Source: Cyanidioschyzon merolae | Taxonomy: Eukaryota | Assembly (NCBI GenBank): GCA_000091205.1 | Contig: AP006496.2 | Strand: one strand, 5' to 3' | DNA: 64,000 nucleotides | In this document: piece by piece, positions 1,530-47,175 of the stretch | How positions within the stretch are numbered: position 1 is the first letter of the stretch | Layout: each line of letters starts with the position of its first letter | Translations under genes and position numbers: made by a program | Notes under the pieces: generated by a model | Database searches by the model: none | Seen by the model: the letters and a program-made list of their open reading frames with translations, nothing else | Told to the model about the DNA's origin: nothing

Positions 1530-2660
1530 CGCAACAATGCGCGCTGCTGAATTGAAGAGGAGGAGAAATTCTCCACTTCGTCCATGGTCGAGCTCATTGC
1601 ATGCATATGCTTAGAGTTCACTGAAATATTCGTGTGAAATAATGAATCCCGTTTGAGACGCAAATCCTTTCCTCATTGCAACCATAGACAAAACGGCATT
1701 CCACAATAGCGCGACGCCTCTCAACGGATATGTTCTCGGATGCTTCCGTTTCTTTTCTTTGCGTGGTAAAGGGTTCTGGACTCCGGCTTGAGTCATCGTA
1801 GCGATCGCTATTCGTGCAGAGTGCGTTTCCGCTGTATTCGAAATGTGCGTAGGGAGGAGTCGACGTTTCTTGACTTGATCTCGAGTCTAGATTTTCCTCA
1901 TGGTACGTTTTTCACCATGGACAGCATCGCGTCCCATAAACTCTCTTCTGTTCGAAAAACAGCAGAGAACGGAGGGTGAGTCATCATATTCAACCCCATT
2001 TATTCTGCATCTATCAAACCGATAGAGGACGTCATCGGGGCCGTGAAATGAAGCAGATGGAGAGATTTCGAATGGGACAACTGCACCTAGTTATGCTGCG
2101 GACGGATTACCCGGCGAGGGGATCGTCCAGAAGAAGCCCACGATCGAAGAGCACGACACCAGGCGTGAATACCAAGGGGCTCATCGCGAGGAGCCCTCTT
2201 TACCCGCCGAGGGCCTGTACCAAGCGATGAAGCAAGCATTCACGCGTCACGTGACGGTCCTCAGAGGAGGAGAAGGTCCAAATGATATATAGGAACACCT
2301 TAGCAGGTTCAAGGGCGCCCGTACGCGGGACGCACCGAGCCTGCACACAGAGAAGATGAAAATAGGAAGCGAAACGAAGATCGCATCTTGGGCCAGTCCA
2401 TTTCATCGTTCGACAGCAACTCGGAATCTAGAAATCAGATCTTGAACGCTGCCACCGATACCCTTCGACTGCTGACAACGCTGCTGGAGGGAAAGGAAAG
2501 ACCGGCGTATTTAAAGCCAAAGGTCAGCGAAGCGGAAAGGAGGCTGTCGCAGAATTATCCCCCAACGACTAATGTTCGTGGCAATGGGAAGAGACCCAAA
2601 ATTTAGTTTCTACACCCGAGTCAGCTGACTGGACCGGTTCCACTTTATTCTGAAATAGGT
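1530..2660 (+). mobile_element. Miniature, internally deleted TnpB/Fanzor-like derivative (family 2, copy a)
   Basis: 5-prime block caacaatgcgcgctgctgaattgaag, shared with the other family-2 copies. Mid block ...gacaaaacggcattccacaatagc. 3-prime remnant RNQILNAATDTLRLL (degenerate D-x-NAA-x-NIL RuvC-III motif) at about 2430. Conserved tail ...gtggcaatgggaagagacccaaaatttag...tacacccgagtcag...ttattctgaaatagg ending at about 2655. Confidence 0.6.
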
Positions 2661-2859
2661 GTGAAGCGATGCTCACTTTGGATGAAGTTTAAGGAAACTG
2701 ACCGCTCGTTGCGTCGGGGCGATGGATCTTTGTCGACGCCTTCCACGACCGAAAAACCAACCAAGCCCACAACCACTGCTTCAATGAATAGCGCAACGAA
2801 CGCTCTGCAATCAGCAATTCAAAGAACACCACACCTCATCCGTCACTACATAGAGAAAC

Positions 2860-4765: not shown

Positions 4766-5695
4766 ATGGGAACTGCACACGAGTCACTTGTTGTCGCAAC
4801 CTGGGAGTTCTCGCAAAGCGGAGTCGAAAGCTGTTTTGACTGCCTTCGGAAAGGTGGAAAACCGCTCGACGCAGTTGAAACTGGCATACACGTTGTAGAA
4901 CTCGAACCGACTGTGACCTCAGTCGGATACGGAGGCCTGCCGAACGCGAACGGCGAACTAGAGCTCGACGCAGCCATCACGGACGGTGCCCACTTCGGGG
5001 CTGTGTTTGCTTTGAGGGGATATCGCAGCGCGATCGGGATCGCTCGGGGAGTTCTGGAGCGCAGCGAGCATACGGCACTAGCGGGCAACGGCGCTGTGAA
5101 CTTTGCCCAGGAAGTTCTCGGTGAAGCACCCTTGCCCGATTCGGAGCTGCTAACCGAACACGCTCGACGCCGTCTGGCGGAATACCGAGCCGGCAGGTTC
5201 CAAGGACGGCCCAATGAATCGCATGACACCGTAGGGATGATAGCGGCTCAAAGCACAGGTGATATTGCCGCCGGCTGCGCCACTTCGGGATACCCGTTCA
5301 AGCGACCCGGCCGAGTGGGCGACTCACCGCTACCCGGCGGCGGACTTTTCTGTGAATCGGGGCTGGGGGCGGCGGTAGCTACTGGTGATGGTGACGACCT
5401 CATGCGTCTGTGCCCGACGCATCTCATTGTCGAACTCATGCGAAATGGACAGAGTCCCCAGCGCGCATGTGAAGAGGCCGTTCAGCGGGTCATGAGATAC
5501 CGTGAGCAGACAGGTCGAGATTGCCGTGGCGCGTTCATTGCCGTGCGCTGTGATGCCCTCGCTTGGGGTGCACATGCGACGCACGAAGGCTTCGTGGTTG
5601 CCCATGCCGATGGTCGACGCATGGATCAATCATTGCTTATACCTGTTGAGGTACCCGAAGCGAGGAACAAGCCCTGGCGACGCGTCTGTGTCTAG
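4766..5695 (+). CDS. Isoaspartyl peptidase / L-asparaginase (Ntn-hydrolase, plant-type asparaginase family)
   Basis: The autoproteolytic and nucleophile motif HDTVGMIA is present. GRVGDSPLPGGG and GDGDDLMRL blocks are typical of asparaginase_2 / glycosylasparaginase. The start is a true ATG at 4766. The last ~20 codons lie inside a 93-bp tandem repeat. Confidence 0.8.
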   Translation: MGTAHESLVVATWEFSQSGVESCFDCLRKGGKPLDAVETGIHVVELEPTVTSVGYGGLPNANGELELDAAITDGAHFGAVFALRGYRSAIGIARGVLERSEHTALAGNGAVNFAQEVLGEAPLPDSELLTEHARRRLAEYRAGRFQGRPNESHDTVGMIAAQSTGDIAAGCATSGYPFKRPGRVGDSPLPGGGLFCESGLGAAVATGDGDDLMRLCPTHLIVELMRNGQSPQRACEEAVQRVMRYREQTGRDCRGAFIAVRCDALAWGAHATHEGFVVAHADGRRMDQSLLIPVEVPEARNKPWRRVCV

Positions 5696-5900
5696 GCTTG
5701 CCGATGGTCGACACATGAATCCTGCATTGCTTGTATCTGTTAAAGTACCCGAGGCGAGGAACAAGCCCTGGCGACGCGTCTGTGTCTGGGCTTGCGGATG
5801 GTCGACACGTGAATCATGCATTGCTTGTACCTGTTGAAGTACCCGAGGCGAGGAACAAGCCCTGGCGACGCATTTGTGTCTAGGTTTGAGCCGCGTAATG
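5631..5900. repeat. Tandem repeat, about 93-bp unit x about 2.9 copies
   Basis: Units begin at about 5631, 5725 and 5817 (cattgcttatacctgttgaggtacccgaagcgaggaacaagccctggcgacgcgtctgtgtctaggcttgccgatggtcgacacatgaatc...). They are about 90 percent identical. The first unit contains the asparaginase stop codon. Confidence 0.85.
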
Positions 5901-7454: not shown

Positions 7455-7880
7455 CGTGGAATAGAAATGCCGTGTAGATGCTTCGATAATAGGCGATACT
7501 TTGGAGGATCCGTTGTCGATGCATCGATAATGAGCGATGCTTTGAAGGATGCCGTGTAGGTGCTTCGATAATAGGCGATACTTTGGAGGATCCGTTGTCG
7601 ATGCATCGATAATGAGCGATGCTTTGAAGGATGCCGTGTAGGTGCTTCGATAATAGGCGATACTTTGGAGGATCCGTTGTCGATGCATCGATTATGAGCG
7701 ATGCTTTGAAGGATGCAGTATAGATGCTTCGATAATAGGCGATACTTTGGAGGATCCGTTGTCGATGCATCGATAATGAGCGATGCTTTGAAGGATGCAG
7801 TATAGATGCTTCGATAATAGGCGATACTTTGGAGGATCCGTTGTCGATGCATCGATAATGAGCGATGCTTTGAAGGATGC
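7455..7880. repeat. 82-bp minisatellite, about 5 copies, plus a degenerate relic at about 7960-8035
   Basis: The string cttcgataat recurs at 7481, 7563 and 7645 (period 82). The unit is gcttcgataataggcgatactttggaggatccgttgtcgatgcatcgataatgagcgatgctttgaaggatgccgtgtaggt. It is rich in ATCGAT and ATGCAT palindromes. Every frame on both strands is open across it, so the track ORFs 7330..8055, 7373..7939 and 7692..8042 are repeat artefacts. Confidence 0.9.
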
Positions 7881-13374: not shown

Positions 13375-16300
13375 TTACCAGACATCCCCAAAGCGCCCGA
13401 GAATAGTTTGCGCTTCGGTGATGTCCTTCTGGACTTTTCGCCGCCGGTAAAATATCGGACAGTCGCCGTTACTGCAGAGCACGTCCTGGATACAAGAACC
13501 CATACACTCCTGGCACTGTGTCCATAGCGCGCTGAACAGCTGCTCGAGCTCTGCTGTCTGCTTGAGATGACGCAGATACGTCTCCGCCTCAAAGTCCCTG
13601 CAGTGTTCGCAGAGGGCACTTCCTTTGAGGCCTCGTTTCTGTAACTCGGCCTCATTGATGCCGGCGCGGCAGCGGACACACTGGAGGCGGAACTTTGCAA
13701 ACTTCATAATGCCGCTTCCGGTTCTCGGCGTTGCGACTTGGATACTGCGAGTATGCGCGCCGCTGAAGAGCGTCTCTGGTCTTTTCATGACCGCAGAAAA
13801 AATGCGCTCAAGGGGTTTTCGCAGCATATTTTCTAGGTAGTAGTGAGCATCGATGGGGATGCTGTTCTCGAGAACGTATATCGGGTCCTCAGCACGGGTG
13901 TAGGCCTTTTCGTTCTTTGTTGCTCCCTTGATAATGACGTACGGAACCCGATCGCCCAAGGACGGGGCAGAGCCTGAGTCGCGTTTCCGCAACTTCTCCA
14001 CCAGGAAAACGTGCGCCTGCTTGGCTTCGTAGTCAGTTGTGGCTCGAGTCAGCGTCTTGGAGACAACCAGCAGGGAGAGATCGATACGGTTTTGCAGCAA
14101 ATCGGACACGATCTTCTTCACAAACTCGATCGCTCCGTCCACATCCTGCTCAATAAGCAACTTCTGTAGCACGGTGTCCACCACGTTCGCGACAAGCCGG
14201 CAATTGTCGCGCCGCACGGACTCGATGCCTTTGCAGTCCATCTTATCGTGCCGCTCGAGTCTCGTCCAGTAGAGACCAGCGTAGCGTTTCTTTGAAATCA
14301 GCAGATACGGATAGTACACTTTTTCGAACTCCAGTCTAACAGGAGGCGGAAAGATGTTTGTCAGCTGCTTTGCGGCTTCGCGGCCGAGCTCCATCACCTG
14401 TTCCAGAGTCGCGTGATCGTTGAATTTGACCATCACTGAGTCCGTATCGCCATAGATCACCTCGGCACCCGGATAGAGCCGCTCGACCGTGCTCCTCGTT
14501 AGTTCAATCATATTGCGGCCGTACGACGTGACAGAGGCTGAAATCTCCATGCAGGGCAGCTTACCCACGGAGGCTCCCGTGAACCCGTATACAGCGTTTG
14601 CCGATATTTTCAACGCAAGTTGGCGGCCATTCAGAACCTCTCGGAGAAACGGATCCGTCGCGTTTTGCATGTCCCTCTTTGCTGCCTTCCGCGATGCCAG
14701 AAACTCCTCGAGCATCTCACTGAGAATGCCCTTACGTACGGACGGTTTCACAAAGCAGTGGCCCAGAGGCGTGCGGATGTAGTCGTCAGGTTTCAGCTTC
14801 GGGACATCCGACTCGTGCACGAGTGTCGAATAGCAGAGATTGTAAGCCATCATGATGGAGGGATACAGCGAGGCGAAGTCCATGGTGGCTATTGGTGTTC
14901 GGTAGAAGCCCTTCTTTGGCTCGATCACCGTGGCGCCCTCGTACTGCGGACCGCCGTCGCCACTGCGCCCCCCAGCTTCCGTGCGGGGCAGGTCAGGGAC
15001 GAGCAGGTCAGCTTCGTGCGCCTTGCGGTGCAGGAGCGACACAACTTTCACCATGTGACCCCGGCTGAGCAACCAGTCCAGCGGAACACCAGTCACACGA
15101 GCGAGCTCCATATAGTTCGTCAACGACATGAGCTTGTCCATCAGCCGCAGCGGTAGATAGGCATCTTTGAGGCAATAAACCGCAAGACGTCGCCGCGTAT
15201 GCTCGTTACCTGCCTGCAAATCGGTGATGATAGAGTAATGGACGTCCTCCTTCTGTTCGTTGAGGAACTCTGATGACACCGAGTTCAGCGAATACGAGCG
15301 CAGCTTGTGATCGCGAATGATCACCTGCAGCATGTCCATGATGACTCGACCCTCAATGGAGAACGTCATGCTCTCGTGCGTACCAAAAGCGCTCGATGAA
15401 AGACGCGTCCGACGCATGGTTGTGCGTTCGCGACATATACGTCCCAGGTAGGGGAAGCGACTCGCACCAATTGCAGACGCTCTATTCAAAAGGTAGGGTA
15501 GATCAAAATTCACAATATTGTATCCTGTAATGATATCTGGATCGGCAGCAACCAGAAAGTTCCGAAAGCTCTGCAAAAGCTCCTGTTCGCGGTTGAGGGA
15601 AATCACCTGCACACCGGCGACTGGTGCACAGGAGCCGAGCGTGAAGATAGCGCGCACGAGAGGCTCCGTCTTCCCGTACTCCCCGAGGTGACAGCCTATT
15701 TGGATGACGCTGTCATTTTCGGGTTCTGGGAAGATTCCTTTTCTTCCAGCGCACTCGATGTCGAACGAGAGTATTCTAAACGCAGCCGTTCGCAGCCACT
15801 CCCCGCTGGGTGGGTGGCACACCACTGATTGCCAGTGTGCTTCGGCAACGATCTGCGCATAACTCGGGCTCAGCGCATTCGAGACCACTGTATAGGAACC
15901 AGCAGGTACTTCGATCCACGAGCAGCCCATCATTTTGGTATCGATCATGAAGCGCAGCACGAAGTCGACTGATGACTCGAACACATCGAACACGCGACCC
16001 AAGACAGAGCCCTGACTGAGCAGTCCTGCCGCCACGCGCACCAGGTCTGGAGTACGCACGGTAATGCGCAGGAACTCGCTATCGTCTTCGCCCGGCTTGT
16101 AGTACAAGACGGAGCGGCGTCGAACCCGCTCGACACCCAGGATACAATCCCCGGAGCAGTCGGCAACGCGGCCCATTGTTCGGCACTTGTGCTCCAGTTC
16201 GGCTCGAAGTTCGCCAAGAGCGCCGTCCCCGAAACCCTTCGGCGCCGATGCATAGAAGTACGGAGCAAAGCCCTGCACACACAGGAGCACAGACTCGCCA

Positions 16301-16629
16301 CTCAGCGTAACACCGTAGACACGAACCGTTGTGTGCGGCTCAGCAGCGCGATGCCGCTCTACCACATAGTCGCATGTCACCTGGTTAAATAAAAGCGATT
16401 CGGAGGCACTCAGGAGGCTCGTCCGAGCAGCAGGGCGACCGCAAAGCCGCCTGAAGAACTCGATAGACTCTTGGTCCGTCTCGTGACCCGAGAGCGCGCC
16501 CCCGGTCGTTTCCAACACAGGCTCACAATTCGTAAGGTAAGCCGCCTCATCGACGTCTACCTCAAAGCTGTCATCATCGAGAGCATCGTTCGGTTCGTAG
16601 GGATCCGGCGAGAACTGCTGCGGCACCAT
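13375..16629 (-). CDS. POLD1: DNA polymerase delta catalytic subunit (family B), 1084 aa, single exon
   Basis: Exonuclease motifs: FDIECAG (Exo I), YNIVNFDLPYL (Exo II), YCLKDAYL (Exo III). Polymerase motifs: DFASLYPSIM (A), KISANAVYG (B), YGDTDSVMV (C). C-terminal CysA/CysB zinc modules (CEHCRD...CQECMGS...CSNGDCPIFY). ATG verified at 16627-16629. Confidence 0.95.
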   Translation of the reverse strand: MVPQQFSPDPYEPNDALDDDSFEVDVDEAAYLTNCEPVLETTGGALSGHETDQESIEFFRRLCGRPAARTSLLSASESLLFNQVTCDYVVERHRAAEPHTTVRVYGVTLSGESVLLCVQGFAPYFYASAPKGFGDGALGELRAELEHKCRTMGRVADCSGDCILGVERVRRRSVLYYKPGEDDSEFLRITVRTPDLVRVAAGLLSQGSVLGRVFDVFESSVDFVLRFMIDTKMMGCSWIEVPAGSYTVVSNALSPSYAQIVAEAHWQSVVCHPPSGEWLRTAAFRILSFDIECAGRKGIFPEPENDSVIQIGCHLGEYGKTEPLVRAIFTLGSCAPVAGVQVISLNREQELLQSFRNFLVAADPDIITGYNIVNFDLPYLLNRASAIGASRFPYLGRICRERTTMRRTRLSSSAFGTHESMTFSIEGRVIMDMLQVIIRDHKLRSYSLNSVSSEFLNEQKEDVHYSIITDLQAGNEHTRRRLAVYCLKDAYLPLRLMDKLMSLTNYMELARVTGVPLDWLLSRGHMVKVVSLLHRKAHEADLLVPDLPRTEAGGRSGDGGPQYEGATVIEPKKGFYRTPIATMDFASLYPSIMMAYNLCYSTLVHESDVPKLKPDDYIRTPLGHCFVKPSVRKGILSEMLEEFLASRKAAKRDMQNATDPFLREVLNGRQLALKISANAVYGFTGASVGKLPCMEISASVTSYGRNMIELTRSTVERLYPGAEVIYGDTDSVMVKFNDHATLEQVMELGREAAKQLTNIFPPPVRLEFEKVYYPYLLISKKRYAGLYWTRLERHDKMDCKGIESVRRDNCRLVANVVDTVLQKLLIEQDVDGAIEFVKKIVSDLLQNRIDLSLLVVSKTLTRATTDYEAKQAHVFLVEKLRKRDSGSAPSLGDRVPYVIIKGATKNEKAYTRAEDPIYVLENSIPIDAHYYLENMLRKPLERIFSAVMKRPETLFSGAHTRSIQVATPRTGSGIMKFAKFRLQCVRCRAGINEAELQKRGLKGSALCEHCRDFEAETYLRHLKQTAELEQLFSALWTQCQECMGSCIQDVLCSNGDCPIFYRRRKVQKDITEAQTILGRFGDVW

Positions 16630-17089
16630 AGCTGGACGGCAGCAACGAGGCTTTTCAAAAAGATGCCGGTGGCGGCGCTCGTTCCGCTGCTGCGCAATGG
16701 CTTGGCGGCAGTGGCGGCTATACTCGTGTCAGATGAAAATAGAATACGAAAATACTTGCTTTGTTCTTAACTTTCGATTTTTCTTCCGGACTTTCTAGAT
16801 CCACAGACTCGGCATACGAATCACAGCAATAGGGGCTTCCGGATAAACATCTGCTTTTAGAAGTCTGGTTCTTCTTCCCGGAGTGGCTCATTCGACTCTT
16901 TGGCGCTGGAACTCGTTACATTACCGGAATCAAACTGATTCGCGACGCCCTCTAAAAAGGGTTTCTAAATAACCGATATCATGATCGAATTTTTACGTAA
17001 AAAACTCCACGCTTCTCGATTCTTTAGGAATGGCGTGCTCAAATCAGACTTTACTCAAGTTTTCCGCTTTCTGTATCAAGGAAACTTGA

Positions 17090-19215
17090 TGGTGCAGCGA
17101 TGCGCGCTGCTGGATAGGTCAGGAAACGTAATCGGCATCGTCACTCGACGATTTCTTCGCAAGCTCCTGCAGAAAGTTCATCGAAATCCTCATATCAAGC
17201 AACGGATTCCGTTCGCACGACGAAGCCTCCTCGTATCGTTGTTCGCAACGAAACGGCATTTGTCAGCAGCCTGATACCCCTCACGTGATATGCTCCCTGA
17301 GGTTGCGCTTTCTTTTGTCTGCACAGAAAAGCACCACAGACTCGTGCCTAAGTCATTCTAGCGACGGCCCCCAGTACAAAGTGTTTCACCGCTTTGCCAA
17401 GGGAGCATAGACTGATAGAAATCCTCGACTTCTTCGCCGGGGAGGTCTATGAGCGGAAAAGTACGCATTGCGACTCTGAACCATCTCAGCGTCATCTCTC
17501 TCGGCGCGTGATTGAGTCGTTGACGTAAAAGTGAATGCACGAGGACGTAGTCATCAGCCTGGACGACGTGAAGGTTCTCTCTGTGACAGGTGCTTCTTCG
17601 CAGATCATAGGCTCGTCGGATGAAAAGACAGTGAGAAGCCTCAGTCGAGTACCTCCCAAAGGAGACGATGGCGAGAAGATGATGGATCTGGCGCCTTCGA
17701 GTAACCCGCCAACGAGAGCGATTCTACACTTTCGCATCTGAATTGATGCTCCGCAGCTCCCGTAGGGGAGAGATCTTCTCCAGTTTTGAACGCACTTACG
17801 GGTCGCTGCTACGACAACCTCGATTCGCGACTTTTTCGCTTCATTGTGGAGATGAATGCCTGTGCAAAGGCGGCGTAGATGCGTTCGAGGCTCTAAAAGT
17901 AGCGTGGAAGAAGAATAGTAGCTGATTGATAGCATGGAGTTCATGAAGCGGATCGCGTACACGTCGTCCAAAGATTCGGCGGAACTCTTGAGTCGCTGCA
18001 GGAAAGCCAAGCGACGGAAGGCAGAGAAAACTGCGAATGGGAAGAGAAGGGGACGAACGAGACGGCCTCGGTGCGACGAAGAGGCGCGGTGTCCTTCCTC
18101 GAGATTGATGGTGTGGGAGTAGGCATCATGATCAATAGCGAACGTCTTGCAACCGTCCGACCTGAGACGAGCCCCTGATCCCAAGAGGAATCACGCCGTG
18201 GAGCAAGGAGGTATACAGAAGTGTGGCCTCGCGAACTTGGCCTCCATAGCGATTTGCATCGGTCTGGACCCAGAGAGAGCGAACCTCCACACCTGTGCTT
18301 TCATGAGTTTCGAAGAAAAACCCGATTCACCTGGGATAATCGACGACTTACTGGAAGCTCGAATTCCGTCCTATTCGTGTTTCAACTACAATCTTAGGTC
18401 CTAAGCGTGTGCCTAGCATCTTCGTCTCAGCAAACGGGAGCAAACTAGAAAATAGTTCGACCAGCAGGCAAGTGATACGGAAGGGCGTCACAGGCTCCTT
18501 AGCCGCAATGTCGCAATTGAGTGGACCATGTGGAAACTGTGCCCATGACTGTATATATTTCTTCAATGACCGTTACCCTGGTAGGCACGTTTTGTGGGGA
18601 GGGCACTCAGGAACCAAACAGCATGCAGGGACGCCGACTGTGAGCTATTGAATGGACCAGCGTGTGCTTGCACCTGCTGCGGACGGAGTGCTCTAGGATG
18701 GGACCTTTCAAAAGAAGTACCTGATCGTAGAGTACGGTTGTGGGCACGAAACTGGCAGAGGGCATCGAAGAAAGCCCTTTGTAGCCATGAGGAACGCGTC
18801 TCGAGCGGTGAAACAAGCGCTCATGCATTACAGGACGGCTCGCAGCGATGGAGCTGTTGTGTAGAGGTGTGAAAAACTGGCCACAGCCAATTTTCAACGC
18901 CGCCAAGGCCACAACTATGCTATTTACAAATATGATGGAAATGACAAGCGGAGCGGAAATTGCAGCTTCCTTCTGTGCATGAAGTACGTCGAAAACAAGC
19001 GCAAGCAGCGAAATCCTGACCTTCATATTGCTATGAGCATCCTCCAACTGCTCATAACCGAGCTGCAGGGCAGCGAGAGACCGCCATATTTGACGTTCGC
19101 AGAAGAGCGAGAGGAAAAGGAATCTTTCGCTAAAATGTCCCGTAAATGCTCTTGTCAATGACAATAGGAAGAGATCCAAACTTAAGAGTGGACGGCTATG
19201 CTCTGAGATCTGTCC
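17090..19215 (+). mobile_element. TnpB/Fanzor-like derivative (family 2, copy c), longer, with two tandem 3-prime (RuvC-III) segments
   Basis: 5-prime gcgatgcgcgctgctggataggtcagg, encoding QRCALLDRSGNVIGIV. This resembles RuvC-I DPGNTNIITIA of family 1. Mid block aaacggcatttgtcagcagc. A first RuvC-III-like stretch PIFNAAKA at about 18890, a second RNPDLHIAMSILQLL at about 19010. Tail tgtcaatgacaataggaagagatccaaacttaag. Confidence 0.5.
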
Positions 19216-19328
19216 CATTTTATTCGAACGTGGGTGTGGGCTTTGAAAACGGCGCTGGCAACAGTGCTACCGGGAGAAGCATCTGCCGCGCTAAGTAAGA
19301 GCTTTTGGCGGGTTCACTTGAGGCCGGC

Positions 19329-23159: not shown

Positions 23160-26100
23160 GCTCCGCGGGCCGCGTGCTTTCCGTACTGGAGCCAGTGCCT
23201 CCTAAGAAGATCGCACTAGTTGATCGAACCCTCGGAAGCGCACATGCTATCTAGGGAAGCATCGGTCCATCTTATAAAGCCTAGAATCAAAGCCTTCTCT
23301 GCGAGTCATGCATGCAGACGAATTTGAAAATTTCAGCCAAATCCAATTGGTGCGCGAGACGCAACGCGAAAGGCTAACATCGCTAATTCGACCAAAACTT
23401 TGAAAATGAAATCCTGACAGGGGCGCTTCATAGGGTAGACGGAGAGCCGCCGGTGCCTGCCACAAACTGTACGGGGATTCCAGTCTCATTCTGCGCGTTT
23501 TTCATAATCTCGCCACGAGCATTCCGTTTTCCACTAGCTCCTGGCTGGCGGGGCACCAGAATGCAGGTTACCCACCGCGCGTTACCATATTCCAGTAACT
23601 GCTCGCTCAGATATTGTAGTGTGTGGCTGTTCGTCAAGCAGTCGCAGGCCAAATGCCCCCTGGTCACGTTCCTTCACTGCTCAGTATGTGAACGATAGCG
23701 CGTATGGTTCGAGTCGAGAATATTCATGCGATCCTGCGTGGCGCGTTGCAACACTACTTTCGGGTCAGGCTGACATTGTTTAATAACATGCACGCTCTGT
23801 TTCTGCCTTTCGATTGCTTTTCCAAATTTTTTCAGATACTTAGGCTCGGCATTCGAATTGCCGTCATAGGGCTTATGGATTCAGGTTTCGTTTTAGGATT
23901 CTTCGTCGTCTTTTCAGTGCGGCTCCTTCGGAGATTTGCGAATGGAGCTTGCGTTTTCATAGGAATCAAGATGATTCGCGACGAATCCGAATTGCAGTTC
24001 GTAAAAAACCGACACGATCTCCAATTGATACCAACATGTCTCCATTGTTCTCCTGCCCTTACGTGTAGCATGGGCAAGTCAGGCATTCTTCTCGTTTTCG
24101 ATGTTTCTGTTTCACGGCAAATTGTGGGCGCAACGATTCGCACCGGCGGAGTGGCGAGGAAAAATACTTGACGTCTTCCCTTGACTAATGGTACACAGGC
24201 TCATGCCAAAGGTTCACTGAACTTGTAACGTCAAACATTTGACTCTCTTCGAGAGACAAATCCATCTCTCGAAGTGACCGCGAAGATGCAGTATTCCAGC
24301 GCAGCAAATTACATTCACGGGATACGATCCCATAGGCTCCTGTCTCATTTGTTTGAATCGGTAAGGGTCTTGGACTGGGCTTGAGTCATCTTAGCGATTG
24401 GCTCCAGTGGAGAGTGCGTAACCATTTTGCGCGAAGGAAGCGGGATTGGATCGAAGCATGTCGACTTGATCTCCAGCCTTTTTGATCCTTCCAGTTCGAG
24501 TTGCGTCATGCCCAACATCGCATCCGACAAATCCTCATTGGAACGGAAAGGCGTGCACTTGGGCGTGCAGCAGTCAGAGTGCTCGCAAAGTGGACGAGAA
24601 AGAATCCCGTGCTCGTAGGGTACGGTACTAGTTGCGGAAAGAGAGGGAGGCATCGAAGTGGACATCCTGTACTCGTCAAGGGCATGCACCGAAAGTCGAC
24701 GTAGACGCTCACACTCCACTAAGCGACACTCGGAGGCGGATTCGTGGTGAAACAGTGGAGAATCCTGACCACAGCCATGTTTCACCTGTTCGGAAGGTGC
24801 AACAATGCTGGATTCAAATACGATGAATGTGCCAAGCGAAGCGGGGACCGTAGCTTGCACATGTGATAAAAATGAGGCGAAAACAGCTGGAAAATCTATA
24901 TCGTTGCCTGAGCGCAAGTGTGGAAACACTTCGACTGCTCGTAACAGAGCTCGGGAAAAAGGAAAGCATTGCGAATTTAAAGCCTGAGATGAGAATGAGA
25001 GAAAATGGAAGCAGCCGCAGGAATGGTTCCCAACAAAGCTGACTTTGATGACAGTGGGAAGATATCCATACTTTATTGTGTGAGTCTTCTAAGTATAAAA
25101 GACTGGTTCGATTGTATTCTGGTATAGGTGTTGTACTGCTGCGCGGTCGGGCGTGGCGTGCAGAAATCGAATTTCGCTTGCTGTTCCGGAATCCGCGATT
25201 GGCGAAATAACTCAGGACGAATTTCGATTTCTTGAAATTCAATTTTGACGCATGCCGCGCGACCGCGAAACCGGCCTCCGCTTAGTCGGGCAGTGGTTCG
25301 ATCCGCGTGTCGCGGCTTCGGATGTCTAGTTGCCCGTGTACGGCGCCCTCGCTCCAACACTGATGCAGCCCGGTGCTTGTAAATGGTTGCGCAGTCCTTC
25401 GAATGCATCCGTGCCACTGCCCGGAATCCGCTTAGCGCATGGGTGCTAGTTTGCAATCTGGTATCGGTGTGTCAACGCAGGTCGCAGCGCTGGAATTGGT
25501 AGTTTTGCGCCTGCTTCTGTACATGCAGATGTCCTTAACGAGTAGAGCGAACTCTTGTTTCAGAAGTTCTACTTTCTAAAGGCGAATGCCTTGCGCGGAT
25601 CGGCGCTCCCAAACTTAAATCTCCGTCCTAAATTCCCTGGAAAACTCATATTTTCAAGTAAAGAGTTTCCCGTATAGAGATTTCATGTAATATGCCACGC
25701 GTCGTGTGGGTTGAAGGTACGGCGACTATCCCCATTGTTGCTCGATGAGCTGCGCTTCGGTTTCCTTCTATCTGTTATACTAAGATTCAGTATGTTTCAT
25801 GCTCCAAGGGCGCAGCGGACTCCGAGGAACGCAGTTGGAGCGTTGGAGAGTAGAGATCGAGCTCTTCGTGTCATGGGGGCCGTATGAGTCGCGGGTTTCA
25901 CATGCACGGCGCTCGCTGTACTGCGTAGTAGCTGCACCTTACCAACCAACGCATTAATCGGTCGAATTCGGGGGCAGCGGGATGCTTTATGGTTGGGAAT
26001 CGATGAGACTAAGCAGAGATTTCGTGGAAACGCGTTTGTAAACTGAGCCCAGGGAAGCAACCACCTGAGCACCTCGCCAAATACTCAACGTTCCACTGTT

Positions 26101-26991
26101 TCTAGACAAGAAATCGCCTCGGGATTGGACGCTTGATCTATCCAGCGACTATCCGAGAGCCAAGCCTAACACTGGTTGTTGGAGCGATGCTGGATGATGT
26201 GCCGCAGCCTCGGTCGCCACGCACAGAGACAGAAAGGCCCCACAGCGCCTCTACGGTTCTCGACGGGATACAGCCACACCGAAACGAGACGCAACGGTCT
26301 GATTTCCTTAAGCCGGCGATGCATGTTCTCAGAAAAAGCGGGAGAATCGGAACATTAATCGTAGAGCATTCATTGCATTCTTTCCATTGCTTCCTTGATT
26401 CTTCCCTGACTGCATGCCGTCTTCTACTGAGACGCAGAAAGTCTATCGGTTATTGCGTCTCCGGCCATTTCTGATTCTGCACGGCGCGGTCTCCGAAGGA
26501 AAGCGACTCCATAGTATGCAAGGAACTCGACGCATTCATGGATCCCCGAAGAGAGAGAAACTGAGTCTTTGAATCTAAAACTGACACGGTATCGGCGTAC
26601 TATAAAGAAAGAGATTCCGGTTGCCGAACCCGGGGAGCCGCTGAGCTGCTGAGCTGCTTCGACTTTTTGCTCGCAGCATCCGCGCACTATCGTGGTTACT
26701 GAATGAAGACTTTTAGGCGCTTGATAACGAAAAGATTCGATACATCGATGCTTATGAGTACTATGTGCGCCTGTACTTTAAACACTTGTTTTCGTAGCAC
26801 GCTTTCCTGGCGTTCAGAGACTTCAGCCGTTTACAAGTGCGCCAGCAATGCGTTCGAAACCGTTACAACACAAAAAAAACAGAAAGCAACGCCGATATTG
26901 ATCTCTCGCCCGACGGATACTCTGCGCGGATGCCGTACGAGACATGCGTCCGTCGACACCGTTCGATTGCCGCGGCGCACACTTTCATTCA

Positions 26992-27954
26992 TCAGCCAAT
27001 TATAATCTTGCCATCATCTGTGAATGAATATGTTGGAACTTCAAGATTCAACGGAGCTGGACCTTTCCGCACTCGCCCGCTAACGTCGTAATGACTGCCA
27101 TGGCACGGGCAGAAGAATCCACCCCAGTCGCCAGCGTTTGCGATTGGAACGCATCCCAGATGGGTGCACACGCCAACTACCACGAGCCACTCCGGGTTGA
27201 TGGCTCTTGAGGCGTCGGTCTCGGGGTCCCGCAGCGGAGCATTATCATCACGTCGAGCAGCCTCGATCTCCTCTGGTGTGCGATGCCGAATCATCACAGG
27301 TTTCCCGCGCCATTTGATCGTCGCGGTTTGGCCCAACGGGACAGCCGACAGGTCGACTTCGACCGTACCAAGCGCAAGCACATCCGCAGAGGCGCTCATG
27401 GTGTAGATAAACTTTAAGAGCAGAACACGCACAGCTGAAGCAGCGACAAGCTTCGCCGACCCAAGCATCATATATGTGAAAGCCCGCCTGGTCGGATCGC
27501 CACGAGGTAACAAGTGAGGCTCTCGAAAGTACTCGTCCGCGTACCCAACAGGCAAAGCGGTCGACTGCGGTGCGCGACTGGCGACGGCCCCGTCGCCAGC
27601 CAGGGGCGCGACGCTATCCGAGCTTGAACTCGTGAGCGCCGCGCGCTGTGACTTTCGCAGCGCCTCAGCCGCCAGAAGTGCACCATTCTGCACCGAACTC
27701 AGATGAGATGATGAAGTTTCCGGGCTGCTTAACCGCAAACCTGCGCATGTTACCGAACTTGACAGCAACCTCGCTGTCGCTGCTGCCTCGTAGAGGAGTC
27801 GGCGTTCTGGACCACAGCGCACTGGCTCGTTTGCAGCGCGGGGCGCCTCCACAGCGCAGAGCCCCACGCAGCCTAAGAACCCAGAGCGAGAAAGGATGTG
27901 CGTAGTTTGTACGCTTCGTCGAAAGGCTCTTAGAAGCGCAGCTGTCGTCTGCAT
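26992..27954 (-). CDS. Rieske iron-sulfur protein of the mitochondrial cytochrome bc1 complex
   Basis: Box I CTHLGCVP and box [11 protein letters not shown]. The C-terminus [18 protein letters not shown] is the mitochondrial type. The N-terminal presequence is [18 protein letters not shown] verified at 27952-27954. Confidence 0.9.
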
Positions 27955-28053
27955 TAGTGAACTGCTTCTAAAACGCTGACAAGAAACGCGACGCTGTGCG
28001 TTGCTCGCGCGAACGGATCGCCGCCGACGGCGCAGAACGGCTTGGGATATGCT
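27955..28053. promoter_or_regulatory. Putative bidirectional promoter, about 99 bp, between the Rieske and COX19 start codons
   Basis: The two genes are head-to-head with their ATGs 99 bp apart. Both encode respiratory-chain-related proteins. Confidence 0.4.
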
Positions 28054-28470
28054 ATGACGACCTCGAACGCACTGAGCGGTGGGAAGCCGTCACGGCCATC
28101 CCCGCCTGAGAAGGGCTCTTTTCCGCTAGACCGCGAAGGGCTATGTGCAGACTTTGCCCGGGCTGTGATTCGGTGCCTGCGGGAGCGCGAGGGCCGGACA
28201 GCGGCGTGCCGCGGTGAAGAGCTGGCCTATCTCGAGTGTCGCATGAATCACGGTTTAATGACCCCGGAGAGCCCGGCAGATCTTGGCTTCGATGAAGAAA
28301 ACGACAGAGCACTGTCTGCTGTTAATGAGCGTGATGATGGTAAGGAGCAACTGAAAGTCTCAGACGGGGCATACGTCGCTGGCTTGCGGTACCATCGCAG
28401 CAGGCGGCGCCATCGAGAGCAGGAGGGTCAGCGGCCGGGTTCGTCTAGAGAAGAGTCCCCCGAGGGATAG
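28054..28470 (+). CDS. COX19: COX19 cytochrome c oxidase assembly factor (twin CX9C, CHCH fold)
   Basis: [15 protein letters not shown] is followed by [11 protein letters not shown] and [11 protein letters not shown] (two CX9C pairs), then CRMNHGLM. This is the canonical COX19 pattern. The track ORF starts with TTG at 28042; the ATG is at 28054. There is a long acidic, Arg-rich C-terminal tail. Confidence 0.85.
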
Positions 28471-28623
28471 GAGGTCCTCGTGTTTGGCCTTTTCTGGCCC
28501 AATACGGGTAGGTGAACAGCCGCGACGAACCGCGGAGACGGGTAATGGCGTTCGCCCGGTGATAAATGTCCGCCGAACAGGGTTCGCAGGGTACCTCGCG
28601 TCTGGAGGTGCGCTCTATGGCTT

Positions 28624-30693
28624 TTATGGCACATATACCATATTCGAGGCGTTTCCGCTGGTGTATCCATCGTTTGTGAAGTTGCTCTCACTAGCCTGGA
28701 CTCCGTATAAGAGCGATCGCAGCAAGCTGTCTGTGCTGGCTTGTGCATCGTCGAGTGTTCGCTGCCCAGCAGTTTGAATTGAAGTCGAGCCTACACCGTC
28801 GCGACCCTCTCGGTGAACATCGTTACGCCCCCACTGTTGATTGTTTTCTCTGCTGCTCATTTCAAGTTTTGCTCCGGTTTCCACCGCATCCTGCGGAAAT
28901 CGTGGCGGAGTGCAACTTGTGCACACGGCGGGCGGCTTTGAATACGCGACGCATGCTGCATCGCATGCATTGGCAACTGCAGTCCGAGGCTCAAACGATT
29001 CTGGAGCAAGTGCTGATTCGCTGTCACCGCAGGCACTTATCCATGCATATTGGAGGCGGATGTGGCTCGGTGAACCGCACAACCGATGGATTTCTGACAC
29101 GAGGAGCTGCTCACCTTCGTCGCTCCTACGCATCCAATGTCCGAGTCCGTTTGCCCGCGCCATGCGGCATGCATTCGCGTTCCAGAGCTCGTCAAATTCA
29201 GCTGTTCCGGTCCGGTAAGCCTCGTCGGTACACACCCGTAGGCGGAGCAAATGGGCAGGCGGTAGTTGTTCCCGCATCTCATTTGAGGTTTGCACAGAAG
29301 ATGCGATACAGGATGCCCATTTTTCTGCGAGATGGTCGAACACTGCAGCGAATCTTTTCTTCAAGCGAAGCGTGAGGAGGATGCGAGGGTTGCGGTTCCA
29401 CTGCTCAAGTTTGATTTCTTCAGGACTCCTTGGCAACGGCACGATTTGCAGACTGACTTCCATGTTCAAATTTTTGCCATCGCGAGTATTCGTGAGCGCC
29501 TTGCGAAGTATGCGATCTGGTTCGATATCAACCATGTGCCCAGGCTCCGTATGATGGCTATCTCTTTCGCGGAGCGCGGCGTAGGCCCCGGCACCGGCGC
29601 GGTTCAGCCATGCAGCGCTTGATTCCGGCCTGGCGCTGGCTGCCGTTTCTGCTGTAGGTTCTTGTCGCAGTAGGCTCAAAAGCGCAGCGGCCCAGCTGCA
29701 GGCATCGGACGTCGACGCGCACTTACCGAATGCGGTGGCGGTTTGGTCAGCGATGGAACGGACGCCGTCCTTGTTTTGGATGCCTCTGGTTTCCAGCTGC
29801 CTAGCGGCGAGTAGAGTGCGAATTTGCAGATCCGGCTGTAAAACGCGGTCGAATAAGTGCATGGATTCGGCTATTTCTGCTATCTCCGGGCTAATCATAG
29901 CTGCTCGTTTGACTGGATCGATTGCCCTCCGAAGACATCGATGAAAAACTCCTGTCACCTGGGATGCTGATCTTGTACGAATGATGCGAGCCATAGCCTG
30001 GAAGTCGCGCCCCACCTGCAGAAGCGCTTTGTAAAACATTTCTATTTCATGCTCGCTCCAGACGCCGATGTTAACGGATGGCGCCCCGTCCGTCTTTGGC
30101 AGATGTTTCGTGCCATCCGATGCAAGCTCGGAGGCCGTAGTGGCGGCTCGTGCCGCTGCTGGAGACCTGTGCGCAGCAGTGACTTCCTGGCGCTTTAGGC
30201 CCGCTCCTCGCCACCGCATCCATCCGGCCGATCTCTTCCACGTGCTTCCAGCGGTTCCAGCACCTTGCATATCCGGTCTCAGTGAAGAACCGGTCCCAAA
30301 ATTGGCATTGTTGCTGTTCTCTGTGCGCGGAAGGGCAGCGACTCTGGTTAATCCTGGCGCAGGGTGATCTCTGCTTGTCCCCTCTATCGCAAGACACCAG
30401 TCCGTGCCAGTATCAGAGCCTAGCTTCTGCACTGCTCCGCCTGTTTGGGTATGCCCGAGCAGCGTACTGCTTCCGAAAAGCAGCGAGGGCAACTGATGGA
30501 GGCTCAAACCTTTATCGAGCCCTAGACCAAACAGACTTCCATTGGAGTTCCCGAGCTGCGCTACCCATGGCGAGAGTGACACTGTTCCGAGTTCCTCCGC
30601 AGCCCGCGTGCCAGTTTCGAGCTCGGGAATATTTCTCCCAGCTTCAGCGAGATACGTCTGTGTACCTCTGCGTCCCAAGGCAGTTGAGTCCAT
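28624..30693 (-). CDS. SANT-domain protein, Bdp1 (TFIIIB B-double-prime)-like
   Basis: WSEHEIEMFYKALLQVGRDFQAMARIIRTRSASQVTGVF fits the extended SANT domain of Bdp1 (W-S-x2-E-x3-F-Y-x-A-x2-Q-x-G-x-D-F...R-T/S-x2-Q-V). The rest of the protein is low-complexity. ATG verified at 30691-30693. The product assignment is tentative. Confidence 0.5.
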   Translation of the reverse strand: MDSTALGRRGTQTYLAEAGRNIPELETGTRAAEELGTVSLSPWVAQLGNSNGSLFGLGLDKGLSLHQLPSLLFGSSTLLGHTQTGGAVQKLGSDTGTDWCLAIEGTSRDHPAPGLTRVAALPRTENSNNANFGTGSSLRPDMQGAGTAGSTWKRSAGWMRWRGAGLKRQEVTAAHRSPAAARAATTASELASDGTKHLPKTDGAPSVNIGVWSEHEIEMFYKALLQVGRDFQAMARIIRTRSASQVTGVFHRCLRRAIDPVKRAAMISPEIAEIAESMHLFDRVLQPDLQIRTLLAARQLETRGIQNKDGVRSIADQTATAFGKCASTSDACSWAAALLSLLRQEPTAETAASARPESSAAWLNRAGAGAYAALRERDSHHTEPGHMVDIEPDRILRKALTNTRDGKNLNMEVSLQIVPLPRSPEEIKLEQWNRNPRILLTLRLKKRFAAVFDHLAEKWASCIASSVQTSNEMREQLPPAHLLRLRVCTDEAYRTGTAEFDELWNANACRMARANGLGHWMRRSDEGEQLLVSEIHRLCGSPSHIRLQYAWISACGDSESALAPESFEPRTAVANACDAACVAYSKPPAVCTSCTPPRFPQDAVETGAKLEMSSRENNQQWGRNDVHREGRDGVGSTSIQTAGQRTLDDAQASTDSLLRSLLYGVQASESNFTNDGYTSGNASNMVYVP

Positions 30694-31295
30694 TTCAAGC
30701 GTGATCCTCAGTCTGTGCTAAACCGCAAAAGACAGTCTTCGCACTTGAGTGCGTGTCGAAGTACAGAGCACCCTATGACACCCCGTCGACCAAGACACAG
30801 AACTGCGAATACGATTCACAAACAACAGATCCAGAAACAAAACCCCCGACACCCAAACGAGCAACAACCAAGCAAGTTCCAACTACAGGGGTGTTGAATG
30901 CGAAGCGCCGCCCCTACTACCGCACACCGACACGCTTGAACGGCTCATCGAGCGTATGGCGCGCAGTCGACGCCTGCAGGCACCGAAGGCGCGCCAACTG
31001 CGCCTGATGCATCGGAAGCCCCATGAGGCAGTGCCCTCTGGCGGTAGCGGCATCGACGCCATGCCCCAGATGCAGCGCATCGCCGCCTGCGGCCAAATGG
31101 AAGCCGTTGCACGCATGCATTCACGCACGCACGCACGCATGCACGGTACGCCATGCGTGCCGTCCGGATTTCGAATTCGATTCCCGCCATGCTGCCATGT
31201 CCGAAGCGCTTACGTCACGCGGCAGCATTCTATCTGGGTACCTTTACAGCGCTTTGACTGGTTGCAGCGGGTGACCTGTTTGTTCCTTGCGGAAC

Positions 31296-33164
31296 ATGGC
31301 TTGTGTTCAAGGCACGTTTGGTTACCGTTCCGGAACGAATGAGGGATCCGCGGCGAGCGAGCAGATCTGCTGTTTTGCCGGAGAGGCGGCTGTTGTGCTC
31401 AGCGCGCTGCAGCAGGCGCTGCGCGATCGGCTGCTGAGACAGGCTGAAACGATAACGGACTCGGGGCCGCAGGCTGCAGGCGTCGGTGCTAGTGCGGTGC
31501 CGGAAGGGCTCGGGCACGACGTTGCTGGTCGAGTAGCTGCGCAGCTTGACCTTGGTGATCTCGATCCTGAGCAGCGGCGTTTGTTTTTGGAACGTTTGGT
31601 GGAGCACCAGCGGCGGTTTGTGCAGTATGCGCAAAGAGAGTTAAGCGAGAAAGTTGCGAAGATTCAGTCAGTCTATCCTTACCTATGCCACGAGGAGTGT
31701 GTTGCTGCGATGAACCTGATATCTGAAGAGCGCAGGGAGCTTGACGACAACATTGCCGTGCTCGGCGTGGAGGATGAGGCCGTGACTCGTCTTGCGGATC
31801 GCGGTTTCGAGTTGGTGGTGCGACAGGAGGTCGCTTTCCGGTATATGAAGGAGGTCTCCGCTGCGGCAGCGAGTGGAGGTGCCCTAGCACCAGGACCACC
31901 TCTCGATGCGAGAGCCGGCGGGAGCGGTATGAGGCGCAAGCCGTCCAACCGGGGAACATCGAGGAAGTCGAACAGCGAGCTCATGCTCGAAGGGGTTCGC
32001 ATCGGGCGCAGGCAAGATGGTCGCTTATGCCTGGACGAGGCTCTGCGAAGGATGCAGCAAACGGGGAGCTTTGATGGCTGGAGTGAGGCTCGGATCAAAG
32101 CTTGGCTCAACAAGGATGCGAATCCGAATGCGTATTATTACCGATTTAACGACCCTGGAGAAGAGCAGCGAAACGGCAAGTGGACCAAGCAGGAACACGA
32201 GCGCTTCATGCAGCGACTGAAAGAATGCCACATCGGAGAGAACTACGAGTGGGGAATCTTCTCGATGGCACTGCCTGGGCGGGTCGGGTACCAGTGCAGC
32301 AACTATTACCGCACTCTCCTCAAGAGGGGCATTGTGAAAGATGATAACTACTACTTCAACGAGAAGGGTGAACCCAAGTTTCGTTTCAAAACCAAGAGCG
32401 GTGTCCAGTTGACGTCAGACGAAAACGGAACTAGCTGTGCCGTTTCCAATGCTGCCAGAGTCGCTACGAAACGCAGCGGCCAGCGCCGCCTGGCGAAGCG
32501 AAAACAATCTCTCTGGGACTCGGACGATTCGGACTCTGCCGCCGATGACGACGAGACTGAATACGTTCCGAACCATGCCGTGTCTGCGCAGTCTGTTCGC
32601 CGCTCGGCGCGGTCGCGAAGGATAGTCAACTACGCCGATGTGGAGGACGGGGCGCCTGCAAATGCTGGCGAAATGGAGATGCATCCGGATGGTACCGCTG
32701 CTGTTGGGTCCGGCACGAACCCTAAGCGATCGCGACGGGATACGGAATCAGGTGCTCCGAACAATGAGTTACGGATGATATCCCAAGTTACCGCATCTGC
32801 CTCAGATTCTGGCGAATCATCTTTGCGCTCGAGTTTGAAAGACAGTTCGACGCCGTCCGAGTATTCAGACAAGGCCGGAGCTCTGTGCGAACTCAATGGG
32901 AACGAATTCCGTTCGAGATCTCATGCACGAGATTCGGACAACCCGCTTCCCGACTTTATCGATGTCATTACAATGGAGCCCGTACGTCGACCAGCGATAT
33001 CCCCATCGGGGCACGTATTAGGCTATTTAACCTGGAGGCGACTTCTTCAGCAACACCCCCGAAACACATGTCCATTCACGAAGAAGCCACTTCGACTTGC
33101 TGACTTGACGCTGCTCACGCATGAAAACATCCACGAGTACACACACCGCATTGTTGGTCGATGA
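31296..33164 (+). CDS. Myb/SANT-like plus C-terminal U-box protein (putative E3 ligase of unusual architecture)
   Basis: Myb-like repeat WTKQEHERFMQRLKECHIGENYEWGIFSMALPGRVGYQCSNYYRTLLKRG. The C-terminal DFIDVITMEPVRRPAISPSGHVLGYLTWRRLLQQHPRNTCPFTKKPLRLADLTLLTHENI matches the U-box consensus. The track ORF starts with TTG at 31287; the ATG is at 31296. Confidence 0.65.
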   Translation: MACVQGTFGYRSGTNEGSAASEQICCFAGEAAVVLSALQQALRDRLLRQAETITDSGPQAAGVGASAVPEGLGHDVAGRVAAQLDLGDLDPEQRRLFLERLVEHQRRFVQYAQRELSEKVAKIQSVYPYLCHEECVAAMNLISEERRELDDNIAVLGVEDEAVTRLADRGFELVVRQEVAFRYMKEVSAAAASGGALAPGPPLDARAGGSGMRRKPSNRGTSRKSNSELMLEGVRIGRRQDGRLCLDEALRRMQQTGSFDGWSEARIKAWLNKDANPNAYYYRFNDPGEEQRNGKWTKQEHERFMQRLKECHIGENYEWGIFSMALPGRVGYQCSNYYRTLLKRGIVKDDNYYFNEKGEPKFRFKTKSGVQLTSDENGTSCAVSNAARVATKRSGQRRLAKRKQSLWDSDDSDSAADDDETEYVPNHAVSAQSVRRSARSRRIVNYADVEDGAPANAGEMEMHPDGTAAVGSGTNPKRSRRDTESGAPNNELRMISQVTASASDSGESSLRSSLKDSSTPSEYSDKAGALCELNGNEFRSRSHARDSDNPLPDFIDVITMEPVRRPAISPSGHVLGYLTWRRLLQQHPRNTCPFTKKPLRLADLTLLTHENIHEYTHRIVGR

Positions 33165-33169
33165 AACAT

Positions 33170-34873: not shown

Positions 34874-35226
34874 ACCACTAACAGACAGCAAAACGCTGTG
34901 AAACGAGTCCTAATCGTTTACAATAACAGGGAGCTGCCGCAGTTGCGAACGCTTCCACTCGTGCAACAACCTCCAGCGTCGAAAAAAGTACTGTGTGCAC
35001 CTCCAGGCGATGAATCGCGTCACGACTGAACCGCAGCGCGGCTGCTGGAAAAAACAGCCGCGCACTATTTTACCGATACAGCGTGGTCGCTCGTGCATCT
35101 GCGCATAACTGGGATGCATGTACCACCGACATGGAGGACGTCAATCGAGTCTAAACGTCGTGCTCTGAGAGGCTGCATGTTATGGCTTGCACGGGCATCC
35201 AGCGGCGATCCGGTGCATAACGAGCG

Positions 35227-47010: not shown

Positions 47011-47175
47011 CTAGGGCCGTCCTTTCCATGAGATCAAATCGATGATGGACCGAACGAGCGACACAAAATGGGATCCACTTCGGTGCCTGTGTTCTCCGAG
47101 AGAGCGTGATCGGTAGCCTCCTGAGGTCCATTTCAACGCTCTCATTTCCATGCAGCATGATCCAGCCGCATCACA

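Follow-up and report, generated by a model that had tools for sequence, protein, structure and literature searches.

A dead transposon copy with transposase and Fanzor1 relics between POLD1 and OTU1 of Cyanidioschyzon merolae

In the present work we have examined 64,000 nucleotides of the red alga Cyanidioschyzon merolae (assembly GCA_000091205.1, contig AP006496.2), a stretch referred to below as the window, and in particular the interval between its genes for the DNA polymerase POLD1 and the deubiquitinase OTU1. This interval is a single dead transposon copy, here called copy c, an ordinary fossil that encodes nothing functional. Copy c is very probably a dead member of a non-autonomous Tc1/mariner (IS630-like) family, family-2, whose ancestor carried a gene for Fanzor1, the eukaryotic homologue of the RNA-guided nuclease TnpB. 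What is left of that gene in copy c is a relic and not a functional member. An original prediction, made from the letters of the sequence, had recognised at this place between POLD1 and OTU1 a copy of a repeated TnpB/Fanzor-related element that is unusually long for its family. Self-BLAST, domain matches and Pfam bear these points out, and the limits then proposed, 17090-19215, turn out to be too narrow (Table 1).

Family-2 is a real repeat family, with six colinear copies (a to f) in the window according to self-BLAST. Additional copies came from a single-protein locus search, and at least eight more distinct ones are found in metagenome contigs of the same alga; two contigs with further copies are 99.2-99.7% identical to the window itself. 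More generally, stretches of the window match metagenome contigs of the Joint Genome Institute (JGI), in particular Ga0078972_1000949, at 99.2-99.9% identity. A family consensus was built from 14 copies, the six of the window and eight from the metagenomes, and family-2 as it appears there is an internally deleted, non-autonomous mariner-Fanzor1 element.

The 5' half of the consensus, which contains one stop, encodes the N-terminal ~220 residues of a Tc1/mariner (IS630-like) transposase, with the recognisable part ...VSRQLVGAAIRAAGLTRK...LFVAIDETAFD...GYAPRG...CFIMDNIAFHKS. It matches the Pfam family DDE_3 with 40.2 bits (cut-off 28.6, E value 3.8e-10) over profile positions 3-99 of 146; the match ends at position 99 because the part with the third acidic residue has been deleted. 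The helix-turn-helix families HTH_Tnp_Tc3_2, HTH_33 and HTH_32 match weakly, all under the cut-off (E values 0.002-0.02), and the intact relatives P0001 and P0004 align colinearly with the consensus transposase, this N-terminal part included. In copy c itself, the related proteins P0002, P0003 and P0005 cover 16886-17393 (tblastn). There, the projected transposase frame has six stops, the first catalytic Asp has become Asn (VVRNETAF, 17238-17261), and the second Asp is encoded at 17472-17474.

At its termini the 14-copy consensus has an inverted repeat of 28 bp, with TAGACTCGTGTCAGATTAAAATGGAACA at one end and, as reverse complement, TACACCCATGTCAGAATAAAATGGAACA at the other; 24 of 28 positions match, a score that was reached by none of 2000 shuffles. 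In single copies no consistent inverted repeats are detectable. Both consensus termini start with TA, and the ends of the individual copies are too decayed to tell a duplication from the repeat.

The 3' half of the consensus is a 177-codon open frame that starts with MEQRALARAADRVLAEGIAQKKPVIVGYGTGRGNGGGH and continues with ...DIWEHLTTAK(C)HRCEG...FRLCMKC...NRDLNAAINILRLLTTELEGKERPAYL, that is, with the G-x-G stretch, the RuvC-II Glu, the C4 zinc finger and the RuvC-III of a Fanzor1. It gives 32.8 bits (cut-off 26.3) with the Pfam family Cas12f1-like_TNB (PF07282, TNB / OrfB zinc-ribbon), while a stitched translation of copy c gives no match to PF07282, and 75.8 bits with a hidden Markov model (HMM) of published Fanzor1 proteins. 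In blastp the E values for CRe-4, CRe-1, CRe-2, CVu-1, VCa-1 and CMe-1 range from 9e-10 to 6e-5, the closest being the green-algal CRe-4 (32% identity, E value 9e-10); of the Fanzor2 proteins, ACa-1 gives an E value of 7.6 and ACa-2 no match. Judged by these comparisons, the family-2 nuclease is closer to Fanzor1 than to Fanzor2 or the IS607-type TnpB. The Fanzor1 motif of Bao and Jurka, D-X(125-275)-[TS][TS]-X-X-C4 zinc finger-X(5-50)-RD, is represented in the consensus by TTAKCHRC...CMKC...NRD. Neither the nuclease half nor CMe-1 gave meaningful matches when searched by sequence against solved structures. An open reading frame (ORF) fusing the two halves across the junction was considered and rejected: the consensus halves do not share a frame, and no copy is free of stops. 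As a check for a guide (omega) RNA we folded the 3' 203 nt of the consensus, which gave a z-score of -1.66 relative to shuffles; covariation is not expected in neutrally decaying copies.

Copy c is ~1.15 kb longer than its relatives. It aligns with the consensus in two arms, 16722-17431 and 18645-19172, which are 1.2 kb apart, compared with ~70 bp at this place in the other copies; the junction of the short copies corresponds to position 18645. P0058, a Fanzor fragment that belongs to the same lineage, served as query for an exhaustive HMMER search, which yielded full-length relatives of 680-760 aa. The middle of these proteins matches, within the window, only copy c, colinearly and on the plus strand, at 17729-18145, 18228-18314 and 18487-19092, and the other five copies are matched only from about residue 294 of P0064 on. 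Because the Fanzor1 middles match copy c alone, it is a long form that holds approximately the C-terminal two thirds of a Fanzor1. In addition to the alignments of Table 1, P0072 matches the protein middle with residues 109-230 (E value 0.002) and the C-terminal third with an E value of 4e-14, and P0058 residues 21-81 match the RuvC-I region with 36% identity (E value 4e-4; all tblastn).

The relic is heavily degraded. It has at least nine stops and at least two frameshifts (frames 2, 0 and 1), one of the four Cys residues of the zinc finger is left, and no intact reading frame is present in copy c; all six window copies carry stops. The RuvC-III near 19010 is the one among the three quoted peptides for which the earlier proposal was right: RNPDLHIAMSILQLL stands in the reading frame, is homologous to the consensus NRDLNAAINILRLL and is thus genuine, if degenerate. 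The motif GLDPERANLHT is a probable, although not proven, RuvC-I relic, judging from its position in colinear alignments with three relatives; its Asp codon at 18267 stands ~204 codons ahead of LATAN (18877-18891), which is followed by PD at 19015-19020. Six-frame translations of 17400-18700 have no matches in Pfam. Comparisons of the extra segment of copy c with the family-1 frames (tblastn; family-1 is discussed below) and with the extra 116 bp of copy a (BLASTN) are at chance level.

The divergence from the consensus is the same at all codon positions, with mismatch fractions of 0.25/0.25/0.26 (nuclease half) and 0.24/0.23/0.25 (transposase half), and the substitution is uniform along the element. 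Every pair of window copies is 56-61% identical, and each copy carries 7-11 stops, of which 3-7 fall in the transposase half and 1-7 in the nuclease half. The equal codon-position mismatch, the equal pairwise distances and the stops are as expected after one old burst and subsequent neutral decay.

Table 1. Positions of copy c, its parts and protein matches, the neighbouring genes and the other family-2 copies. Positions are those of the window, except for L042 and the consensus in the last row.
Feature	Position	Strand	Remarks
Copy c, whole element	16719-19238	+	28-bp terminal inverted repeats
5' terminal inverted repeat TATACTCGTGTCAGATGAAAATAGAATA	16719-16746	+	consensus termini mapped onto copy c
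Tc1/mariner (IS630-like, DDE_3) transposase relic	16799-17497	+	N-terminus through helix-turn-helix to second catalytic Asp
Deletion-junction segment between transposase and Fanzor relics	17498-17728	+	231 bp
Fanzor1 relic, protein middle	17729-18193	+	copy c only; six stops in frame
P0066 aa 9-133	17729-18145	+	tblastn, linked E value 1e-4; GRCYDNLDSRLF, EIDGVGVGI
GRCYDNLDSRLF in Fanzor middle	17801-17836	+	
EIDGVGVGI	18101-18127	+	conserved ETDGVG strand
Fanzor1 RuvC-I relic (probable) ICIGLDPERANLHTCA	18228-18314	+	motif GLDPERANLHT 18261-18293; Asp codon 18267-18269
P0065 aa 65-93	18228-18314	+	45% identical, E value 6e-4; RuvC-I (probable)
P0066 aa 171-191	18237-18299	+	62% identical; ICIGLDPERANLHTCA vs ICRGLDPGRVNLYTTA, RuvC-I (probable)
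Fanzor1 relic, C-terminal third	18487-19161	+	helical linker to stop 19159-19161
P0058 aa 118-226	18487-18813	+	ungapped, E value 4e-12
P0064 aa 262-510	18487-19092	+	E value 7e-16
G-x-G stretch IVEYGCG	18724-18744	+	
RuvC-II Glu in RCEKLAT	18871-18873	+	Glu codon
RuvC-III RNPDLHIAMSILQLL	19009-19053	+	Asp codon 19018-19020
3' terminal inverted repeat TGTCCCATTTTATTCGAACGTGGGTGTG	19211-19238	+	consensus termini mapped onto copy c
POLD1, family-B DNA polymerase, delta type	13375-16629	-	Pfam; start codon 16629
OTU1 deubiquitinase	from 19329	+	Pfam; start codon 19329
Copy a	~1208-2663	+	
Copy b	12011-10632	-	
Copy d	23755-25130	+	
Copy e	41362-42730	+	
Copy f	45621-47011	+	
Fanzor-side deletion endpoints	L042 370-1073; copy a 2040-2075; family junction consensus ~800		

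We now turn to how the shorter forms came about. Copy a retains 116 bp extra at the junction, which continue the transposase through the third catalytic Glu (KPIED); its HKLSSVRKTAENGG*VIIFNPIYSASIKPIEDVIGAVK aligns with HKTHAVRAAAAEMGFDMLFTPPYCPEFNPIELVFGVVK of P0004 (aa 204-264, tblastn E value 1e-8). Because these additional 116 bp encode the next part of the transposase, the junction of the short form is a deletion. By frame reading, copy a also keeps ~12 more Fanzor codons than the short form, and the two may be successive steps of one lineage. In the contig L042, the transposase C-terminus is followed by Fanzor residues 1-23 fused to residues 540-751 (P0067 numbering), the leftover piece P0052 being an intact 216-codon ORF without RuvC-I. 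In L003, an open frame with weak similarity to the N-termini of Fanzor proteins (E value 4e-4) comes after the intact transposase P0004. The order transposase, then Fanzor, is thus found in two unrelated contigs.

According to the scheme that we propose, the ancestor would have been an element of ~3.6-3.8 kb with the order TA, 28-bp inverted repeat, DD35E transposase, Fanzor1 of ~700-750 aa, inverted repeat and TA, and would have existed at full length in this genome. It would have moved by cut-and-paste at TA, with duplication of the TA, through the DD35E transposase, the Fanzor1 being an RNA-guided nuclease passenger. Internal deletions would have led to shorter derivatives that were mobile only with transposase supplied in trans. 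In the common 1.38-kb form, transposase residue ~220, just past the second Asp, would have become joined to the last ~175 residues of Fanzor1, and copy c would have retained ~1.15 kb more, comprising part of the N-terminal half, RuvC-I, RuvC-II, the zinc finger and RuvC-III. A burst of insertions would have followed, after which the copies decayed neutrally.

A number of observations weigh against this reading and should be pointed out. No full-length autonomous family-2 copy was found in this genome, nor a second long copy of the type of copy c, all 13 of the 13 others examined being short or a-type. The inverted repeats of copy c match each other at 16 of 28 positions, and its TA duplication is inseparable from the first two bases of the repeat. 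Neither transposase C-termini nor Fanzor proteins match the 231-bp segment 17498-17728 significantly, and Pfam gives no match there. The RuvC-I assignment rests on colinear alignments with E values of only 1e-4 to 6e-4; in a window-wide search with a position-specific scoring matrix (PSSM) the motif alone ranks 12th, with shuffled windows scoring higher, and a scan of the window with the Fanzor1 HMM misses the relic at 18261-18293. Finally, copy c may have arisen by a smaller deletion or by recombination of a short copy with a longer Fanzor-bearing element.

The last of these points touches on an alternative that is considered below. A different alternative concerns the location of the element. 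Copy c makes up 2520 of the 2699 bp that separate the start codons of POLD1 and OTU1, leaving 179 bp uncovered, 89 bp on the POLD1 side and 90 bp on the OTU1 side. In copies b, c, e and f the 5' end, at 12011, 16719, 41362 and 45621, respectively, is ~77, 89, 219 and 29 bp away from the ORF starts at 12088, 16629, 41142 and 45591, which were taken from a program-made list of ORFs and not from verified start codons. These positions suggest insertion into, or retention in, promoter regions. Family-2 ends could have been kept as promoter or spacer for the flanking divergent host genes, here POLD1 and OTU1. This would fit the almost complete filling of the spacer by copy c and the distances of ~30-220 bp from a divergent ORF start, as well as the length of the copies, which has been retained in a compact genome in spite of ~25% substitution. 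However, substitution is uniform both over the length of the element and between codon positions, copy c has decayed inverted repeats (16/28), and DNA transposons prefer open promoter DNA, which accounts for the positions just as well. We consider a promoter role unlikely.

Another option is that the extra 1.15 kb is secondary, a short copy having gained Fanzor sequence from a longer element, such as L038, by recombination or gene conversion at shared nuclease sequence, in which case copy c would not stem from a less-deleted progenitor. Fanzor-only, internally deleted relatives (L038) do occur in related genomes, all 13 other copies examined have a short or a-type junction, and the extra segment has on its left 231 bp without assignment. 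On the other hand, the extra segment begins within a few bases of the family deletion junction on the transposase side and runs into the right arm in the same orientation without rearrangement. It is also as diverged from its relatives as the arms are, with no sign of a younger segment, and a different deletion end-point, as in copy a, is the simpler explanation. A search of the extra segment against all loci by BLASTN gave no match in the ~330 kb sampled, which means that it is not a common independent repeat there. A secondary gain is, in our judgement, quite improbable.

Regarding the end-points themselves, on the Fanzor side the deletions of the family-2 forms and of L042, which comes from an AT-rich genome, stop no more than ~12 codons apart, around ...NDERYKKKMVQFRLAQRAL. 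At least two, and possibly three, separate deletion events end close together on this side. One can speculate that the last ~200 residues of Fanzor1 and the 3' end of the element were retained for a reason, be it a cis function (a guide-RNA gene or a mobilisation sequence) or a nuclease-dead zinc-ribbon protein, and if so, the ~1.4-kb copies kept beside promoters in a compact genome could mean host use. We regard this as highly doubtful.

The idea of the original prediction that one element end had been inserted into another, giving two tandem 3' segments with RuvC-III stretches 100 bp apart as a sign of Fanzor self-targeting, can practically be dismissed: it has in its favour the extra ~1.15 kb of copy c and a 13-nt exact match of the FNAA codons at 18893-18905 to the family-1 RuvC-III codons, but the single-copy consensus, in its part upstream of RuvC-III, aligns colinearly with 18860-18960 (74% over 88 bp, E value 2e-11), the added length is situated 240-1400 bp further upstream, where transposase and Fanzor meet, and consists of coding sequence from the interior of Fanzor1, arranged as expected and deleted from the shorter copies, and neither a second inverted repeat, a duplicated 3' end nor target-site evidence was found. 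The three peptides on which the idea was built are all present where they had been reported, and only RNPDLHIAMSILQLL has the meaning ascribed to it. PIFNAAKA (18887-18910, plus strand), taken for a second RuvC-III, is read in frame 2, while the conserved Fanzor frame is 1 (RCEKLATAN, 18865-18891), and it coincides with the zinc finger's first pair of Cys residues. Its similarity to the family-1 RDFNAATNI codons is the 13-nt word without extension (E value 6.2 in the whole window), a chance, out-of-frame match, and there is a single 3' end. The lack of an extended alignment is the very outcome that the original prediction had named as its refutation. Similarly, the RuvC-I-like QRCALLDRSGNVIGIV (17095-17142, plus strand) is a reading in frame pos%3=1 (+1) of the transposase helix-turn-helix region, whose conserved frame near 17100 is pos%3=0 (SVSRKLDGAAMRAAG, 17070-17114), and the likely RuvC-I relic is found 1.1 kb further on, at 18261-18293.

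The window is gene-dense, with a G+C content of ~55% and long uninterrupted reading frames. Rfam and tRNA scans of the window gave no matches, and no orthologous POLD1-OTU1 spacer was present among the 37 fetched loci. Opposite the Fanzor relic of copy c, the minus strand has an open frame of 230 codons (17492-18184). Nothing indicates a gene here, and long antisense frames are common opposite coding or formerly coding sequence in this G+C-rich genome. The second-best PSSM match to the Fanzor1 RuvC-I, GLLSGLDPGRLRFRYHVR (47324-47377, plus strand), is located 300 bp downstream of copy f; it is probably due to chance, as its score is in the shuffled range and Fanzor proteins do not match there. 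Tandem direct repeats occur at 5605-5888 (unit ~94 bp, 87-89%), 7467-7880 (82 bp, 96-98%) and 57336-57715 (~98 bp, 77%). The Logan contig L001 (SRR35626486), which stems from an independent assembly of the same genome and corresponds to 25025-36534, breaks on one side near the 3' end of copy d (25130) and on the other within the first family-1 element, in its 5' part (36534); this is consistent with a high genome-wide number of these repeats.

The only Fanzor1 family reported for C. merolae is CMe-1A, which has no inverted repeats and no transposase and is unclassified (Bao and Jurka 2013, PMC3627910); in the literature searched (Repbase being outside its scope) it is the only one described for this algal group. 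Family-1 is this published CMe-1A, with copies in the window at 37150-39270 and 59521-61622. The CMe-1 protein (PMC3627910, Additional file 3) matches them at 37080-39172 and 59458-61609 with 57-68% aa identity (tblastn). Both copies (36300-39270 and 59458-61622) are pseudogenes, and the RuvC-I of the second reads GVGPEN, the Asp being lost. A fragment on the minus strand at 130-235 resembles the 5' end of the second copy (59405-59502, 74%) and corresponds to residues 1-21 of CMe-1. Probably, this is CMe-1A in truncated form or a piece similar to TE-N2_CMe. CMe-1A and family-2 share the genome, the protein superfamily and an old decay. However, contrary to the parallel drawn earlier with family-1, there is no DNA similarity between the two, and the family-2 nuclease half matches CMe-1 only in the 20-residue RuvC-III motif.

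Among the closest known elements are PUl-1, PUl-2 and PUl-4 of Pythium ultimum and PGv-1 of Phaeocystis globosa virus, mariner/Tc1 elements with Fanzor1 (PMC3627910). As proposed for family-2, these combine a Tc1/mariner transposase and a Fanzor1 in one element with 24-33-bp inverted repeats and TA, some members of their families have lost one gene, and the length of the family-2 ancestor, which we infer to be ~3.6-3.8 kb, agrees with that of PUl-1 (3620 bp) and of PUl-2 (3820 bp) (PMC3627910). The difference is that all family-2 copies are dead chimeras, in which the N-terminal two thirds of the transposase are joined to a C-terminal piece of Fanzor. The Fanzor relic of copy c is likewise colinear with full-length Fanzor1 relatives from metagenomes (P0067, 756 aa; P0071, 682 aa; P0064, 551 aa) from about residue 270 (P0067 numbering) to the C-terminus, but these are open reading frames, whereas copy c is interrupted by stops and frameshifts and its zinc finger is destroyed.

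Internally deleted non-autonomous DNA transposons are a route from autonomous Tc1/mariner elements to derivatives similar to miniature inverted-repeat transposable elements (MITEs). Family-2 resembles this route in that the ends are kept, the interior is lost with variable break-points (the short form, copies a and c, and L042), and one form has been amplified. Unlike typical MITEs, its copies are far larger (1.4-2.5 kb), and coding relics of two genes are recognisable in them.

The analysis removes a false lead, in that copy c shows no self-targeting or nested Fanzor insertion, and leaves a dead 2.5-kb transposon in the divergent promoter region of the housekeeping genes POLD1 and OTU1, which is a small, testable case for transposon-end promoters. 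Mariner-borne Fanzor1 and non-autonomous deletion derivatives are already known kinds of elements, to which family-2 adds a member, and its clear deletion series shows how mariner-Fanzor1 elements shrink. For Cyanidioschyzon-type red algae, family-2 very probably represents a second, mariner-borne Fanzor1 lineage beside the unclassified CMe-1A.

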